Source of the DNA: a virus
Taxonomy: Duplodnaviria > Caudoviricetes
IMG/VR virus record: IMGVR_UViG_3300025103_003050
Span: 1-52,328 of that record
Strand: one strand, 5' to 3'
Length of the DNA: 52,328 nucleotides
Under the pieces are notes generated by a model. The model made no database searches, had not been told where the DNA came from, and saw only the letters and a list, made by a program, of their open reading frames with translations. Position numbers and translations under genes: made by a program. Below are positions 4,481 to 48,391 of the stretch, piece by piece. The number at the start of each line of letters is the position of its first letter. Within the stretch, counting starts at the first letter, position 1.

Positions 4481-4779
4481 TTATCTTTTAAACACCTCAC
4501 TATTAAATTTTTTAAAATAGGATTACTTTTTAAAACAGTATAATATTGTTCTGTTAAAGTTGCTACTTTTTCTTCACCATGCGGGCCTACTTGAAAATCA
4601 TTTAAAGCCATTATAATATGAAAAATTTCATGAAATAAAGTCTTACCTAACATTTGTTTAGTAAGTCCTTTTCTAATAATTAAGGTATTAGTATTGTAAG
4701 TATATAAAGCATAGTCATCTATCTTTTTAAAGATGACTTTTGTTGTTGTATTTTTGTATTTAATTTCAGTTAGTTTCAT
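4477..4779 (-). CDS. Small zincin-like metallopeptidase (HExxH)
   Basis: TLFHEIFHII plus downstream EE motif. Confidence 0.65.
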   Translation of the reverse strand: MKLTEIKYKNTTTKVIFKKIDDYALYTYNTNTLIIRKGLTKQMLGKTLFHEIFHIIMALNDFQVGPHGEEKVATLTEQYYTVLKSNPILKNLIVRCLKDK

Positions 4780-4809
4780 GGGGCCAATCTTCTGACCCCA
4801 TTATAACAT

Positions 4810-5553
4810 TTATCTCCCAAGCATTCTACTTTTTGTTTGAGCATTTACTTGAGTATTTAGACCAATACCACCTCCTGCGGCTTTACCGTTATGATAAGCG
4901 GCTCTATCTCTTATATTCATACTGCTTTTTTTCGATACAATACGAACACCTTGACTAACGAGCCACTCCGAAAGAGCCTTCTGTTCATTCTTATAAAGCA
5001 TTGGTAATCCATCTGGATTTTTTATACCTTCATAAGGTGGAGCTATTTCTTCAAATCTATCTTTCAATCTTTTAGATAGACGACTTGCGCAACCTAACTT
5101 AAAAGCTTGTTTCATTCGATTAATAGCTGACTTACTACCAGGTACAGTTTTAAACTCATTCTCTGCTAGTCTTACAACTGTACTTATAAAGTAATCGCAC
5201 ATTGATTTAGCTACTATTCTATTGGATTTTCTTCCAACAAAAGTAGCTTTTTTCACTCTACGATAATTAGCATCTATACCTGACGAAGTATACATTTGAC
5301 AAAAGTATAATTTAGCAGTAGCTGATTGAATCCAACCACGCCAATTATCTCTTGCGACATCAACTGATTCTTTATCAATTGGTTCTACTTCTGTATCATC
5401 TTTTATATCAGACATAGATAGATTATGTTCCGAAAGCAATTGTTGAGCTTTATTAGCAGCAAGCATGGCTTCGTTCTCTGATGCACCATTTTCTTCTGAC
5501 ATCTTTAAAAGCTTTTGTATTCGCTTCAGAATACTCTCTTTTTCTTCTGGCAT
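4810..5553 (-). CDS. DUF2786 domain protein
   Basis: N-terminal ILKRIQKLL...NEAMLAANKAQQLLSEHNLS. Start moved to 5553, where the AGAAAGGAGAAAT RBS lies. Confidence 0.8.
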   Translation of the reverse strand: MPEEKESILKRIQKLLKMSEENGASENEAMLAANKAQQLLSEHNLSMSDIKDDTEVEPIDKESVDVARDNWRGWIQSATAKLYFCQMYTSSGIDANYRRVKKATFVGRKSNRIVAKSMCDYFISTVVRLAENEFKTVPGSKSAINRMKQAFKLGCASRLSKRLKDRFEEIAPPYEGIKNPDGLPMLYKNEQKALSEWLVSQGVRIVSKKSSMNIRDRAAYHNGKAAGGGIGLNTQVNAQTKSRMLGR

Positions 5554-5578
5554 ATTTCTCCTTTCTTTATTATTAATT

Positions 5579-5717
5579 GAATCAGTAAGACCGCTTCGGC
5601 GACACACTAGTATTGAGCCGTCTCAGAATTCTGTGTCTCATAAGTCTTACTGATCCTAGGCAAATAACTACCTGTCTCTGTAGACCCACGGCTTAACGCC
5701 CTGCGATAATTACTTGC
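5579..5717 (-). ncRNA. Putative structured RNA or leader with two 13-bp-closed multibranch domains
   Basis: 5705-5717 pairs with 5660-5672 and 5644-5656 pairs with 5579-5591. G-U pairs work only on the - strand. Confidence 0.6.
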
Positions 5718-5725
5718 TATTCTTA

Positions 5726-6130
5726 CTATATATTATTTTTTTCTTTTTTAGACAAGATTATTCGTATTGTGTTCCAATCTTTCGCTATCGCTTTTTGCTC
5801 CCATTCTTCCCGAGTTACACCAATCGCTAAAGCTTCACCTTCTGAACTTGGAAATAAATAAATTTCTTTATCCTTTTTCACAATTATATAGACAAGTCCT
5901 CCGTGATAGGTATAAGACTTGTGCCATGCGATTTGTTCTATACTCAGCTTTAGCTTTAATTTGGTTTTTTCTCTTTTGGGGGACCGCACATACTTACCTT
6001 CTAGCCAACCACTTTGACCAGCTGAACAGTAGTGCACATCAGGAATTCCTCGTTCAATCTGTGTCTCAATTCTCTGAATAAAAAAATCGTTTAATTTTGA
6101 TCTAATCGTCTGCCAAATTTGCTTTTCCAT
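5726..6130 (-). CDS. PD-(D/E)XK nuclease (VRR-NUC / resolvase-like)
   Basis: E.QIWQ...RIET...GIPDV...WLEGK...LSIEQIAWH. Confidence 0.8.
   Translation of the reverse strand: MEKQIWQTIRSKLNDFFIQRIETQIERGIPDVHYCSAGQSGWLEGKYVRSPKREKTKLKLKLSIEQIAWHKSYTYHGGLVYIIVKKDKEIYLFPSSEGEALAIGVTREEWEQKAIAKDWNTIRIILSKKEKNNI
5727..5755 (-). promoter_or_regulatory. Sigma70-like promoter for the structured RNA and DUF2786 gene
   Basis: TTGTCT-N17-TATATA; predicted start about 5720, at the 5' edge of the structure. Confidence 0.45.
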
Positions 6131-6866
6131 TAAACTTACATACAGGGATTGATTTCATTTTATGTAAATTCTTCTTTCTTAATTTTAAATATTTTTGATA
6201 ATCAGGCTCTGTTGGATTATTCATTAAATATTCTATTTTGGAATAAGACATTCCTAATTGATCTACATCTTTTCTTCCATCATTCCATAAACCATCGGTA
6301 GGTTCAGCATTTATTATTTCATCTAAAATTTTTAATTCTCGTGCCATATCCCATACTTGAGTTTTTGTACAATCTGCGATTGGTGAAATATCAACTCCAC
6401 CATCACCATATTTTGTAAAAAAACCTACACCAAAGTCTTCAATTTTATTACCTGTTCCTACCACAATACCCTTGGTACTAGCGGATATTTGATATAAACA
6501 CATCATTCTCATTCTTGCTCTAGAATTTGCTAAACCCATTTTATCTGTAAATTTCATATCTATCATTTGATTTTCAAAACTTAAAAAAGTATGAGTTAAA
6601 TCTAAATTAACACCATAACAATTTTGAAATTTAGTAGTTAACCAATTTTTATGTTTAATAGATAAGTCATGATCTTCGGGTCTTTGGGAAATAGGCATTG
6701 ATGCCACAAGTGTTTTAATTCCAGTTAGTCCACAAATTGTACTAACAACTGATGAATCCACTCCTCCTGAAATTCCTACTACTAAACAATTAGCAGGCGT
6801 ATCCATACTTTCAACATAATCAATTAGCCATTTTCTAATAAAATTTAGTCGTTCAAAAGGAGTCAT
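6102..6866 (-). CDS. nadE: NH3-dependent NAD+ synthetase (or homologous ATP-dependent amidating enzyme)
   Basis: SGGVDS PP-loop, NSRARMRM, GTGNKIE.GVGFFTKYGDGG, PTDGLW, D.DQLGMSY. Probable start is the ATG at 6866. Confidence 0.9.
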   Translation of the reverse strand: MTPFERLNFIRKWLIDYVESMDTPANCLVVGISGGVDSSVVSTICGLTGIKTLVASMPISQRPEDHDLSIKHKNWLTTKFQNCYGVNLDLTHTFLSFENQMIDMKFTDKMGLANSRARMRMMCLYQISASTKGIVVGTGNKIEDFGVGFFTKYGDGGVDISPIADCTKTQVWDMARELKILDEIINAEPTDGLWNDGRKDVDQLGMSYSKIEYLMNNPTEPDYQKYLKLRKKNLHKMKSIPVCKFNGKANLADD

Positions 6867-8124
6867 TATTTTTTCCAATCGGTATATATTTTACATCTTT
6901 ATTTACTTTTAAATATCTAAAAGGATCAATAACTATTGAACCTGACATAAAATAAAATTCTTTCCAAGCTTCATGTTTAGTTCCTATAAAAAATAATTGA
7001 GGTTCTTTATCCCATTTATAAGTATCCTTTACTTTCATAATATCATTATCGTCAACCCAAGGATCCCACATAGTAACTTCTTTACCTTTTTCTTTTAGAA
7101 TATTTTTCAACAAGATAGAAGGACTTCCTACTGTTAAATTAGTTTCAGGTTTAAAACATTTACCTAAAATATTTATTTTTTTATCTTCAGCATATTTTAT
7201 ACATAGATTAGCTAACCATTCAGTTTGTACTTCTCTTTGTTTCATTATATTATCATACCAATTATATGATAAATTTAATTTTTGAGCTAAATAACTCAGA
7301 GCTATATTATCTCTAGGATGACAACCTCCTCCATCTCCCATTCCCCCTGTTAAATATTTAGGACTTATAATTCTATCTGTACATAAAGCAAGAGCTTTAG
7401 TAACATCATCAACATCTGTATTAGGTAAATAATGACAAGTTTCCATAATAGTATTTATCATTGCTATCTTCGTTGAAATAAAAGTATTATAGACTACTTT
7501 AATTAATTCAGCATTTTCTAAAGTAGTTTCATGAAAAGGAGCATTATTAATTGTTTTATAAAATTCTTTAGCTTTTTTAGCAGCAGACTTATCATCTACT
7601 CCAAATAAAATAACTTCGCTATTTAAGAAATCAGTAATAGTTGTTCCCATTGCTATAAAAAATGGATTATAACAAAGTTTTAAATGTGTGCCTAAAATTG
7701 GTTTAATAAGTTTTGTAATAGTACCAGGAAGGACAGTAGATATAATAACCACAACTTTATCTTTCCCTTGTTTTTCGATTTCTTCATTTAAATCTTTTAT
7801 TCCTTTCACTAAATAATCATAATTAAAATCTGCTCTTTCTTCTGGAATACGAGTTATACCTTCATATTTTTCTTCATGCGGAGTTTGAATAGGAACAAAT
7901 ATAATATCACTTTCTTCCACAATTTTATCTGTAGTTTTTAATTTTAATTGAGATTTTTGTAATAATTTATTAGCACCTTCTTCTTTATAAGTTAAACTTT
8001 TAAATCTAATATCACGAAGTGTACGATCATTAATATCTGTACCAATAACAGTATGACCTTTACTTTCACACGCTAAAGCTACTGGTAAACCTAGTTTTCC
8101 TAACCCGATAAAACCTATTTTCAT
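6853..8124 (-). CDS. ugd: UDP-glucose/GDP-mannose 6-dehydrogenase family
   Basis: GLGKLG Rossmann motif, AELIK..YN, catalytic GGGCHPRD. Confidence 0.85.
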   Translation of the reverse strand: MKIGFIGLGKLGLPVALACESKGHTVIGTDINDRTLRDIRFKSLTYKEEGANKLLQKSQLKLKTTDKIVEESDIIFVPIQTPHEEKYEGITRIPEERADFNYDYLVKGIKDLNEEIEKQGKDKVVVIISTVLPGTITKLIKPILGTHLKLCYNPFFIAMGTTITDFLNSEVILFGVDDKSAAKKAKEFYKTINNAPFHETTLENAELIKVVYNTFISTKIAMINTIMETCHYLPNTDVDDVTKALALCTDRIISPKYLTGGMGDGGGCHPRDNIALSYLAQKLNLSYNWYDNIMKQREVQTEWLANLCIKYAEDKKINILGKCFKPETNLTVGSPSILLKNILKEKGKEVTMWDPWVDDNDIMKVKDTYKWDKEPQLFFIGTKHEAWKEFYFMSGSIVIDPFRYLKVNKDVKYIPIGKNNDSF

Positions 8125-9966
8125 TTATTTTGCGTTACCCCAATTATCTCCTTTCTCGACATCCACCTTTAAGGGCACTTTCAACTTTACGCAAGTTTTC
8201 ATGATTTGTAAAGCTTCTTCAAAACATTTTTGTTTATTCCAAGGAATTGAAAAATCTAATTCATCGTGAATAGTTAGTTTTAAATCTATTTCATCTAAAA
8301 TTCCTGCTTCATAAATTTTTAACATTGCAGCTTTTGTAATATCAGCTGATGAACCTTGAATTAAAGCATTTAATGCTGTATGAGTATAAGCTCGTTTTAA
8401 TTCTTGTTTAGGATACTGTGCGTGTGCTTCGGAAAGTGTATATGCTCTTTCTCCCCAACTATCTCTAGGTTCCCACATATCAAATCTTCTTTTACGACCA
8501 AGTAAAGTTTTAATATAACCCCTACTCCCTGCCACATTTGATACTTGTCTTGATAATTCTTTAACAAATGGTACTTTATTATGATATTGATTAAATAATT
8601 CATAAGCTTGATCTTGTTCTAATCCTAATTGTGCAGCTAATTTTTTATTTCCCATACCATAGAATAATCCTAAATTAATAGTCTTGGCTTGCTTTCTTTC
8701 TATTCCTGCCATATTAGCAACCATTTGATGAAAATCTGTTTTATCATTTCTACAAAATTCTTTTTGAACTTGTAAAGCACTTTTCATATCTTTAAGACTA
8801 GCATAATGTACTAATACTCTAGGTTCTTGTTGAGAGTAATCCGCACAATACCATTCGGAATCTTCTTCTGGTATAAATAAACTTCTGATCATCGGACCAA
8901 GTTCAGGGTCTCTAGCTGGTACTTGTTGAAGATTAGGATATTGAGAACTAAATCTTCCTGTAACTGTACCCATTGGATTAAAACTACAATGTATACGACC
9001 ATTAACAGATTTATCAATAATCATGTTTTTAATAAATGTATTTCGTATCTTGTCTAATTTACGAATATTTAAAATACTTTGACTAACATCATCCACTTGA
9101 GTTTCCAGCCAACTTGCAGTGAAAGATGGAGTACCTTTTGCGGTGTAGTTATATTTAATGTTATTTTTATCATATGCTTCCTTTAAAGAGGCGTTTGCCC
9201 ATACATTAACTATGGTTCCTCCTAAAGTATTTAGTCGTGATTGCATATGAATTTGTTTTTTTTCTAACTCTACATATAATTTATGGGCTTTATCAACATC
9301 AACTCTTACTCCTTTTTTTCTCATTTCAAATAGAACTTGAATTAACTTTGATTCAAATTTAATTATATCTTCAATACCTTCTCTCTTTATTCTTTCTTGT
9401 TGTTTTTGATATATTTGTAAAGTAAGTAAAGCATCTTCTTTAGCATATTCACTTACTTCATTTGCGTGTAGTCTCCATAAATTTTCTTTTACTTTAGCAC
9501 GTTTACCAAACTTATATAAGACAGCTTGTTCGAGTTCAACTTCATATTTAGATTTTCTTAAATAAAACTTTGCTAATGAGTTTAATGAATACTTTAATTT
9601 ATTTTCATCAAGTAGATGTTCTATTGCAAGTACATCTAAAATCTCGTGACTACGAGTAAGGGTAAGTCGCTTATCCAGTGAATAAAGCCACTCTACGTCA
9701 TACATTGCGTTAGCAAATACGAGCTTTTTCTTCTTTGAGTAAATATATAATAAAAAACTAATGACTTTTTCTTTATTTAAATTTCCACCACCTTGGTGTT
9801 TAATTGGAAAATATTCGTTATATCCACTATCAGTTGCAATAGAAATACCTGCTATGAAACCATCTTTTCTAAAACCACCAGGACCCATTGTTTTAAGATT
9901 AGGATCATAGGTCTCGGTATCTATTGCTATTAAATTTGCTTCATCTATTTTATTTACATTAAACAT
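8125..9966 (-). CDS. polA: Family A DNA polymerase with 3'-5' exonuclease
   Basis: DTET exo I, TGRFSS..PNLQQVP, motif A DYSQQEPR, motif B RKQAKTINLGLFYG, motif C HDE. Confidence 0.95.
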   Translation of the reverse strand: MFNVNKIDEANLIAIDTETYDPNLKTMGPGGFRKDGFIAGISIATDSGYNEYFPIKHQGGGNLNKEKVISFLLYIYSKKKKLVFANAMYDVEWLYSLDKRLTLTRSHEILDVLAIEHLLDENKLKYSLNSLAKFYLRKSKYEVELEQAVLYKFGKRAKVKENLWRLHANEVSEYAKEDALLTLQIYQKQQERIKREGIEDIIKFESKLIQVLFEMRKKGVRVDVDKAHKLYVELEKKQIHMQSRLNTLGGTIVNVWANASLKEAYDKNNIKYNYTAKGTPSFTASWLETQVDDVSQSILNIRKLDKIRNTFIKNMIIDKSVNGRIHCSFNPMGTVTGRFSSQYPNLQQVPARDPELGPMIRSLFIPEEDSEWYCADYSQQEPRVLVHYASLKDMKSALQVQKEFCRNDKTDFHQMVANMAGIERKQAKTINLGLFYGMGNKKLAAQLGLEQDQAYELFNQYHNKVPFVKELSRQVSNVAGSRGYIKTLLGRKRRFDMWEPRDSWGERAYTLSEAHAQYPKQELKRAYTHTALNALIQGSSADITKAAMLKIYEAGILDEIDLKLTIHDELDFSIPWNKQKCFEEALQIMKTCVKLKVPLKVDVEKGDNWGNAK

Positions 9967-10430
9967 TAATTTAATTTTCCTAAAATAAAATTAATATTAA
10001 TATAAGCCCAATCTCTATCTGTCATACCCCATAATCTTTCAGCATCTTTTTGAATATATTTTTCTCCAAATACAATTCTTTTAGCTGAAGTATTTAAAAG
10101 TAATTTAACACAATGAATACAAGGACTTACTGTACAATAGACTGTATGTATATCATATACATCTTTACATTGAAGTAATGCGTTTTGCTCAGCATGTATA
10201 GCTTCACATTTATCTAAATCTTTTCCACTTGTAGAGTGTGCTCCTTTGCAAGGATTATCTAAACAATGAGTAAACCCACTTGGATTTCCATTATAACCAG
10301 TTGCTAATACATGATTTTTTTTATTTACTAAAATACAACCAACTTTTCTTCTGACACAAGTTCCTCGTTCTGATACTAACAACGCCATTCTTAAAAAATA
10401 AAAATCAGCAGGTTGTCTATAATTATCCAT
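9966..10430 (-). CDS. dCMP deaminase
   Basis: TGYNG, HAEQNA, SPCIHC. Probable start MDNYRQ at 10430. Confidence 0.9.
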   Translation of the reverse strand: MDNYRQPADFYFLRMALLVSERGTCVRRKVGCILVNKKNHVLATGYNGNPSGFTHCLDNPCKGAHSTSGKDLDKCEAIHAEQNALLQCKDVYDIHTVYCTVSPCIHCVKLLLNTSAKRIVFGEKYIQKDAERLWGMTDRDWAYININFILGKLN

Positions 10431-10614
10431 ATTTTTTAAATTTATAAATTTTAGCTGAATCAAATCTTGAGGATGTTACTACTCTTTTTATTAATAGATA
10501 TTCTTTTAACTTTTTATAACATTCCTGACAATAAAAAAAATTATTTTCAGTTTCAATAAAACTAAAAATAAGTCGATCACAAGTTTTACAATTATATGAT
10601 TCTTGATTAGCCAT
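10423..10614 (-). CDS. Small zinc-finger protein
   Basis: CKTC...CQEC. Confidence 0.55.
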   Translation of the reverse strand: MANQESYNCKTCDRLIFSFIETENNFFYCQECYKKLKEYLLIKRVVTSSRFDSAKIYKFKKYG

Positions 10615-48308: not shown

Positions 48309-48324
48309 AAGTCTATCCTCCTTT

Positions 48325-48380
48325 AAAAAATAGTCTGCTTGCGCAGTCGTTTGGGTTACTAGGCGCCGAAGCGCCTAGTA
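48325..48380 (-). other. Tandem hairpins downstream of the major capsid gene
   Basis: UACUAGGCGC-UUCG-GCGCCUAGUA, then CUGC-GCAA-GCAG, then a U run. Confidence 0.65.
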
Positions 48381-48391
48381 GTGATTAGTGA

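Follow-up and report, generated by a model that had tools for sequence, protein, structure and literature searches.

The 52,328-nt record IMGVR_UViG_3300025103_003050 of a marine phage of the class Caudoviricetes, analysed here over its whole length and referred to as the window, carries on its minus strand a 139-nt structured segment (positions 5717-5579) between a 134-aa open reading frame (ORF) and a gene for a DUF2786/DUF7168 protein. This locus raises the question of what such a segment is and what it does at the head of the message. The preliminary description, made from the letters of the window, had taken it for one RNA of about 140 nt with two domains and its own promoter. Comparison with homologous loci shows that the 139 nt are two independent, self-contained RNA cassettes, here named D1 and D2, which occupy a hypervariable promoter-proximal slot in the leader of the DUF2786 mRNA. 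The segment is not a single two-domain RNA, because D1 occurs without D2 at eight other loci upstream of DUF2786 genes, one of which (L070) has a different second module, and the core of D2 occurs without D1 in eight other viral contigs. Among the DUF2786 loci, D2 is present only in the window and in its identical twin L085, and only these two join D1 to D2.

All parts of the locus lie on the minus strand. A promoter-like box, TTGTCT-N17-TATATA (5755-5727), extends over the final codons of the upstream ORF and its stop codon, and the second hexamer of the box is followed by a 9-nt spacer and by D1, a three-way junction of 58 nt (5717-5660). The linker CUA (5659-5657, 3 nt) leads to D2, which comprises 78 nt (5656-5579) and consists of a closing helix around a conserved core. 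An A-rich spacer of 14 nt and the ribosome-binding site (RBS) AAAGGAG (5564-5558) come next (5578-5558 together); both are unpaired in the minimum free energy (MFE) structure of the whole intergenic region, which leaves the RBS free 14 nt past the closing helix of D2. The DUF2786/DUF7168 gene starts at the ATG at 5553 and encodes 247 aa (5553-4810; Pfam PF10979, 1.3e-11, and PF23771, 2.5e-12; PHROG phrog_421). The start given by the ORF finder, a GTG at 5607, falls within D2 and is not the start of the gene. The RBS and the ATG are conserved in all homologous loci; since these include relatives in which the element is missing, the element is non-coding and translation starts at 5553.

With regard to folding, the minus strand of the 139 nt reaches an MFE of -52.7 kcal/mol, compared with -33.8 ± 3.2 kcal/mol for 200 dinucleotide shuffles (z -5.90; 0/200 as good), while the plus strand gives a z of -1.79, with 12/200 shuffles as good. 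D1 alone folds at -22.8 kcal/mol (z -5.70; frequency of the MFE structure 0.83; plus strand z -0.13) and D2 alone at -28.9 kcal/mol (z -4.37; plus strand z -3.63), so strand specificity is strong for D1 and weak for D2. The preliminary description is thus borne out as to two closed structured domains on the minus strand. The helices it proposed for D1, namely a 13-bp stem, which proves to hold three G-U pairs, and the GGC/GCC and GUCU/AGAC hairpins, are all found in the fold. In D2, the inner GACAC(A)/(U)GUGUC helix and the UGAG-ACGG-CUCA hairpin were recovered, whereas the outer stem has 14 bp in the MFE structure (two of them G-U) instead of 13, and the proposed CGC-CGAA-GCG hairpin had to be dropped, being present in neither the MFE nor the centroid structure and lacking in four of the five other distinct D2 sequences. 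The segment is also, as had been stated, richer in GC (0.468) than its 300-nt flanks (0.34-0.35), the value for the window being 0.307, and both the RBS and the ATG lie outside the structure. The description of a genuine non-coding, sense-strand structured RNA that is under selection at the RNA level therefore stands; the single architecture does not.

The slot was characterised using DUF2786 relatives with their flanks, of which 15 came from IMG/VR, 40 from a profile search (13 duplicating the first set) and the best 80 of 152 from metagenomes. After dropping those with less than 150 nt upstream or with a truncated gene, the 91 usable rows represented 81 distinct loci. The promoter-like box and the RBS are conserved across these loci, and between them lie either 63-68 nt of unstructured sequence or one or two long-stem modules of differing sequence. 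The slot begins about 5-9 nt past the -10-like box and ends 10-25 nt before the RBS; the first module starts 9 nt after the -10 hexamer in the window and 5-7 nt after it in L143 and L145. It is empty in 44 loci and filled in 37, with 16 different states: D1, D1+D2, D1 with another module, E, E+V, E with another module, U, X, X+W, W, Y, Y+Z, T+T0, T0 with another module, V, and a D1 stem with a different interior. The modules belong to at least 15 unrelated families, each closed by its own helix of 8-20 bp and all in sense orientation. They occur only at this slot in the loci examined, and their cores are nearly invariant across phages whose proteins are 30-75% identical.

On a maximum-likelihood tree of the gene, at least 30 changes of state are required, compared with 33-37 (mean 36.4) for shuffled labels, so that turnover is close to saturation. 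DUF2786 proteins at least 94% identical to that of the window are preceded by D1+D2 (window, L085), by D1 (L058, L060), by W+X (L059) or by an empty slot (L002, L003, L061). The slot is syntenic, since the ORFs immediately 5' of the D2 slot in L143, L144, L145 and L146 are homologous to the 134-aa ORF of the window (30-35% identity). Modules would be exchanged between co-infecting phages through recombination in the conserved flanks, that is, the promoter box and the RBS. No consistent target-site duplication, second copy or recombinase was seen.

D1 is built of three helices: the 13-bp P1 (5717-5705 with 5672-5660), which is seen in folding and in nine sequences; a predicted P2, of 2+3 bp with a GUUAA loop (5703-5698 with 5692-5687); and a predicted P3, of 4 bp with an ACAG loop (5685-5682 with 5677-5674). 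The junction strands comprise one nucleotide each (G, G and A). In the alignment of nine sequences, seven of them distinct, all of the 154 cells pair (100%), compared with 31-38% when the partners are shifted by 1-3 columns. Only three stem positions vary, all in the 3' arm of the stem and all toggling between Watson-Crick and G-U pairs, and a single loop base (GUUAA or GUAAA) is all that differs within the 33-nt interior. Because all three stem changes keep pairing only on the sense strand, and because the interior is otherwise invariant beside a protein whose identity declines to 73%, D1 is constrained at the RNA level. No double compensatory change was found among the nine sequences, and the inner helices P2 and P3 never vary. 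At L099 (988-1033), the closing stem of D1 is kept with one base different around a shorter, AU-rich interior of other sequence, which could be either a decayed D1 or a core swapped inside a kept stem.

D2 came to be recognised as a separate unit through a metatranscriptome contig that is identical to the window over 5595-5641 and unlike it beyond, which prompted a scan of IMG/VR with patterns of the D2 core. This 46-nt core (5640-5595) recurs in the eight other viral contigs, L138/L141, L139/L140, L143, L144, L145 and L146. Within it, a kink-turn (k-turn)-like junction, in which GA (5639-5638) faces a GCC bulge and GA (5600-5596), is followed by an inner helix of 6 bp (5637-5632 with 5606-5601), by the palindromic loop strand GAAUUC (5631-5626) and by the hairpin UGAG-ACGG-CUCA with its invariant ACGG cap (5625-5614). 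The closing helix of 14 bp (5656-5643 with 5592-5579), supported by folding, is replaced in the homologues by different and unrelated complementary sequences of 8-20 bp, while the core is kept. Across six distinct sequences, 96.8% of the cells are paired, compared with 85.0% in shuffles (0/500 reach the observed value) and 31-49% in slid controls, and in eight pairs both partners differ, including one change from A-U to G-C in the inner helix. As these double changes lie mostly in the replaced closing helix, they indicate that a closing helix is required and do not demonstrate gradual compensation.

The core of D2 is more than 90% conserved between phages whose proteins share 30-43% identity; the DNA polymerase of L146, for example, is 43% identical to that of the window. 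The k-turn signature, a GCC bulge 3' of the inner helix and then G-A opposite G-A, is invariant in all six distinct sequences. D2 is thus a candidate k-turn, in agreement at the sequence level with the standard definition given in PMC8191799. The loop strand exists in four variants (GAAUUC, GGAUUCC, GGGACCC and GGAAUCC), all of them palindromes, with two positions changed on both sides. Such a palindrome could form a small alternative hairpin, as the MFE structure predicts in the context of L146, or could allow two copies to pair; the observed variants fit either.

The contexts of D2 outside the DUF2786 loci differ from one another. L145 shows a consensus promoter, D2, an RBS and an unrelated small ORF, and L143 and L144 show a promoter, another module, D2, an RBS and an unrelated gene. 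The only neighbours common to the contigs bearing D2 are the syntenic upstream ORF, a DNA polymerase and small ORFs; no other partner gene was found. L143 (6815-6900) and L144 (3700-3750), which are otherwise near-identical and share the same promoter and D2 copy, carry different first modules, so module swapping also takes place in this GC-richer group of phages. In L138 (4660-5160), L139 (about 7090-7600, reverse strand) and L146 (6790-7175), the D2 core is one member of arrays of at least four GC-rich, long-stem modules, which lie directly 3' of consensus promoters and many of which are bracketed by the inverted pair CTGATCC../..GGATCAG. No Rfam match, tRNA or convincing ORF was found in these arrays. 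The array of L138 ends in a stem and 16 U, after which a promoter, TTGACA-17-TATTAT (11 of 12 consensus positions), precedes a GP88-family gene. The D2 of the window is closest to that of L146 and carries the bracket of the arrays in its own closing stem in flipped order, as if it might have recombined out of a module array.

Among the other modules, family E (six sequences) has a 12-bp closing helix and inner pairs, and three of its 22 predicted pairs show compensatory change; the stem of family U likewise contains a compensatory change. Two forms of module X, one of 67 nt (L069:45-111) and one of 90 nt (L059:1092-1181 and L117:1092-1181), differ by the replacement of an inner segment, as would be the case if a structured RNA carried a variable expansion hairpin. 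A possible shared motif, CGUUAA (CAUUAA in one copy of V), is found in D1, Y, V, the second module of L070 and the first module of L135, which are otherwise unrelated.

Searches for known relatives gave little. The preliminary description had called the element unrecognised, and this agrees with Rfam 15, which yielded no match at the gathering score in the whole window. At E ≤ 10, the region 5400-5900 gave five chance-level matches, none of them on the element, and in 29 related loci no marine module was matched at thresholds of E ≤ 1 or 0.1. ARAGORN found no tRNA. The element is single-copy in the 52-kb record: 16 intergenic gaps were folded and the 15 others show no similar structure, the inverted repeats of the window include no second such element, and G001, a relative that is 91% complete, has no copy. 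No match to the element was obtained by blastn against the INPHARED cultured phages, and exact scans of IMG/VR returned the D1 and E cores only at the known DUF2786 loci. Exact-match scans of one genome per prokaryote species gave 0 matches for the D2 core and 0 for the D1 core, though a diverged original would escape such scans. We regard D1 and D2 as undescribed on the basis of the Rfam and literature searches; the 8495 models in the large catalogue of IMG/VR structured RNAs of PMC10690425 may already include D1, D2 or E.

With regard to the promoter at the 5' edge of the element, the proposed box is present and conserved, and it is a plausible candidate that falls short of a firm assignment. 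It agrees with the consensus at 8 of 12 positions, below what the promoter scan calls, and patterns of the TTGTCT-N17-TATATA type are not enriched in the window (2 matches compared with 1.25 expected). As the box is kept in L011, L037, L038, L105 and L111, where the upstream gene is different, it is part of the DUF2786 unit and more than just the end of the preceding ORF. At the corresponding position, syntenic relatives of higher GC content carry consensus boxes of the TTGAC(A/T)-N17-TATA type. For RNA evidence, four runs were compared, all of which consisted of contigs; one run, of unspecified kind, contained the empty form of the slot.

In distant DUF2786 phages, a further type of structured RNA occupies the equivalent position. 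Directly before the RBS, L054 (the same locus as L147) carries a textbook-looking hammerhead core, scoring 29.6 bits against the RAGATH-1 hammerhead, whose gathering score is 56.3. A pattern search for CUGAUGA...GAAA...UC retrieved this core ahead of distant DUF2786 genes in 4 of the 69 distinct upstream regions searched (L147:616-676, L163:599-655, L164:597-655 and L183:596-652), 24-48 nt before the ATG and below every Rfam hammerhead gathering score, together with one chance-looking match in L196. According to a script that checked stem pairing in the four elements, stem I pairs at 6/6 positions, stem II has 5 bp and stem III 5-7 bp, and stems I and III, with three and four kinds of sequence, respectively, covary across the four loci. 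It is thus very probable that in one clade of DUF2786 phages the equivalent position of the leader holds a self-cleaving RNA. A total of 80 more distant DUF2786 loci were fetched and 60 of them scanned with Rfam; by the gathering-score test, DUF2786 genes in general are not associated with ribozymes. A Pistol ribozyme (RF02679, 67.9 bits, E 2.7e-10) was observed at L056:216-284, 1.2 kb upstream of a distant DUF2786 gene. A hammerhead identity for D1 or D2 themselves was considered and rejected: D1 is a three-way junction whose strands are G, G and A, and neither cassette has the CUGAUGA/GAAA core.

Concerning function, we favour, at a probability of roughly 0.35, the explanation that the cassettes are cis-acting accessory elements of the 5' end. 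As the first nucleotides transcribed, they would form closed, compact domains in which the 5' terminus is base-paired, and these domains would govern the access of host RNases or pyrophosphohydrolase to the message. In this way they could protect it, insulate it from read-through RNA arising upstream, or provide a defined processing site, and a hammerhead-like ribozyme at the equivalent place would reach a comparable outcome by cutting and so redefining the 5' end. According to PMC3997798, bacterial RppH acts preferentially on 5' ends that are single-stranded, and stem-loops at the 5' terminus stabilise mRNA. D1 resembles these stabilisers in presenting a closed helix at or next to the first transcribed nucleotides, 9 nt past the -10-like hexamer; it differs from them in that they need no conserved interior, and the start site here is a predicted one. 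The conserved cores of the cassettes point to a specific tertiary fold or a specific partner, for which an arbitrary hairpin would not suffice.

Another family of cis-acting leader RNAs offers a comparison. The put-type antiterminator RNAs of the lambdoid phage HK022 are two adjacent stem-loops located directly 3' of a promoter, and they act in cis on the transcribing polymerase. The likeness to D1 and D2 is one of description, and the slot differs in that half of its relatives are without any module. Candidate structured RNAs (csRNAs) upstream of phage genes, for instance the several distinct motifs ahead of GP20 and GP32, are read in PMC10690425 as cis-regulators of the downstream gene. They resemble the cassettes in being conserved structures of about 30-150 nt just 5' of a phage gene, with several unrelated motifs per gene family. 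In contrast, the motifs described here replace one another at one slot among near-identical phages, pair up and form arrays, and half of the loci are empty; this slot turnover argues against such regulation of the downstream gene here.

Several observations weigh against cassettes that act in cis at the 5' end. The promoter scan does not call the box at 5755-5727, and as no terminator-like site separates the element from the upstream gene (none was found in 4700-6200), the 5' end may lie further upstream. No contig of the four runs covered D1 and no transcript end was mapped, and the sole contig with the D2 core is a 165-nt one from an RNA library, in an L139-like context, that is, from another phage. 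A plain stabiliser would need no conserved cores, and 44 of the 81 relatives do without any module. The ribozyme parallel rests on one small clade, since none of the 60 distant loci scanned matches any Rfam family at the gathering score. Lastly, the D2 core is one unit of arrays of at least four modules in L138, L139 and L146, and the end of the L138 array looks like that of a stand-alone non-coding RNA, which favours action in trans.

Action in trans is the alternative that survives best, and we consider it possible without thinking it probable. The cassettes would then be accessory RNAs, transcribed first and abundantly from the promoter-proximal slot, whose conserved cores each bind and titrate a host or phage factor, such as a defence nuclease, an RNase or an RNA-binding protein, and the leader would be the place of their expression. 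Near-saturating turnover and presence or absence among close relatives are as seen in accessory counter-defence loci; the modules combine freely and form arrays, one of which ends in a stem and U16 before a new promoter (L138). The conservation of the D2 core above 90% next to proteins of 30-43% identity and within unrelated closing helices is likewise consistent with this explanation, as is the k-turn-like junction, a common protein-binding or architectural motif. There is also precedent for counter-defence by RNA alone in the Racr repeat mimics, as presented in PMC10651486; as the cassettes would be under this explanation, Racrs are small non-coding phage RNAs carried as accessory counter-defence cargo near variable loci. 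However, Racrs copy CRISPR repeats, and the exact-match scans with the D1 and D2 cores (0 matches) revealed no closely copied cellular RNA. A bolder proposal, which we consider possible but less likely than not, is that in marine phages the slot draws on a common stock of at least 15 ancient, autonomously folding modules, swapped by recombination almost as fast as the phages diverge and able to form arrays. These would be RNA-only accessory genes ('morons'), made before any protein, each neutralising or recruiting a different host factor, and D2 would be a k-turn RNA that pairs with itself or with partner modules via its palindromic strand and ACGG loop.

There is a small chance that one or both cassettes represent undescribed classes of self-cleaving ribozyme that cut the leader. 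The hammerhead-like element at the equivalent site in 4 of 69 distant regions and the Pistol ribozyme 1.2 kb upstream in L056 argue for this. According to PMC6765202, bacterial ribozymes are clustered, lying close to one another, to particular genes and to genes of phages, and the cassettes share with phage intergenic hammerheads and other small ribozymes a patchy, often tandem distribution near phage genes. In contrast to these, D1 and D2 have no hammerhead core and match no ribozyme model: no known ribozyme family was reported even at E ≤ 10, and 0/60 distant loci had one at the gathering score. Moreover, closing helices of 13-14 bp would hold the products together. To our knowledge, the single-nucleotide junctions of D1, which has no conserved internal loop of the size known in small ribozymes, also speak against cleavage.

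We see a similarly low probability that the modules bring the phage no benefit. They would then be small non-coding passengers, selfish or neutral, whose spread into the slot at the DNA level is due to a hairpin-recognising recombinase or to flank homology. The insertion/deletion-like pattern with sharp boundaries at conserved flanks is in line with this, and the outer stems resemble terminal inverted repeats; array modules share the CTGATCC../..GGATCAG bracket, which the D2 of the window, closest to L146, carries in flipped order. Against it stand the single copy in the window, its absence from G001 and the lack of any module outside the slot in the loci examined. There is no consistent target-site duplication, and the orientation is fixed relative to transcription. 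The changes in the D1 stem pair only on the sense strand, and the cores are conserved far beyond the flanks. A dispersed repeat of the miniature inverted-repeat transposable element (MITE) or repetitive extragenic palindrome (REP) type was rejected on the single copy, the restriction of modules to the slot and the lack of a consistent duplication. The PeSL cassettes of T4-type phages (PMC4122927) are small promoter-plus-stem-loop units at points of genetic exchange, where conserved flanks anchor recombination, and to that extent they resemble the slot. PeSLs, however, are repeated through the genome and shuffle adjacent ORFs, whereas here the box is single and the stem-loops are variable cargo with conserved complex cores. 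The element was not accepted as a PeSL cassette, being single-copy, with the promoter pattern at 2 compared with 1.25 expected and no comparable hairpin in the 15 other gaps.

It is very unlikely that the element controls translation, be it as a riboswitch that senses a ligand or as an operator to which the DUF2786 protein binds. Its position in the leader and the conserved, complex, aptamer-like core of D2 with its k-turn-like junction would suit such a role, and a riboswitch-like leader had been among the initial proposals. Nevertheless, the locus has no expression platform, as the RBS is unpaired and there is no terminator, and closing helices of 13-14 bp that overlap neither RBS nor terminator are too long to switch; 44 of 81 loci, moreover, have no module. 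A translational operator of the DUF2786 protein was rejected, as proteins at least 94% identical stand behind four leader states and the D2 core precedes unrelated ORFs. Finally, the single 140-nt two-domain RNA, which the adjacency of D1 and D2, 3 nt apart in the window and L085, might suggest, is scarcely credible given D1 without D2 at eight loci (in L070 with another second module) and the D2 core without D1 in eight contigs.

The upstream 134-aa ORF (6130-5726, minus strand) belongs to phrog_2165, which is labelled 'DNA helicase', and its homologues in cultured siphophages of Achromobacter, Xanthomonas and Pseudomonas are annotated as helicase, hypothetical or 'recombination protein U'; the helicase label looks doubtful for a protein of only 134 aa. 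The DUF2786 protein showed no relative among solved structures (best E 0.83), and none of the eight small ORFs downstream of its gene matched a Pfam family. Further upstream (6102-8124, minus strand), an NAD synthase gene and a UDP-glucose/GDP-mannose dehydrogenase-family gene lie within the replication module adjoining the DNA polymerase, as does a dCMP deaminase gene (9966-10463); the NadE gene shows 76% DNA identity over 267 nt to its counterpart in a Pelagibacter phage. The only other GC-rich intergenic stretch of the window (48309-48391, minus strand; 0.46) contains two hairpins, one of them a perfect 10-bp stem capped by a UUCG loop and the other short, together with a U-run, and looks like a terminator between two ORFs.

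If the two-cassette slot is as described, D1, D2 and their sister modules (E, U, X, Y, Z, W, V, T, S and others) would be undescribed families of structured RNA under clear RNA-level constraint. The near-isogenic phages that differ only in the module heading the same message would constitute a natural experiment, and the role of small structured RNAs and ribozymes in phage intergenic regions, a long-open question, would become testable by comparing leader states. Recombination through conserved flanks would be a route by which phages trade non-coding RNA cargo, and the compact, self-closing modules could become leader insulators or protein-binding parts.

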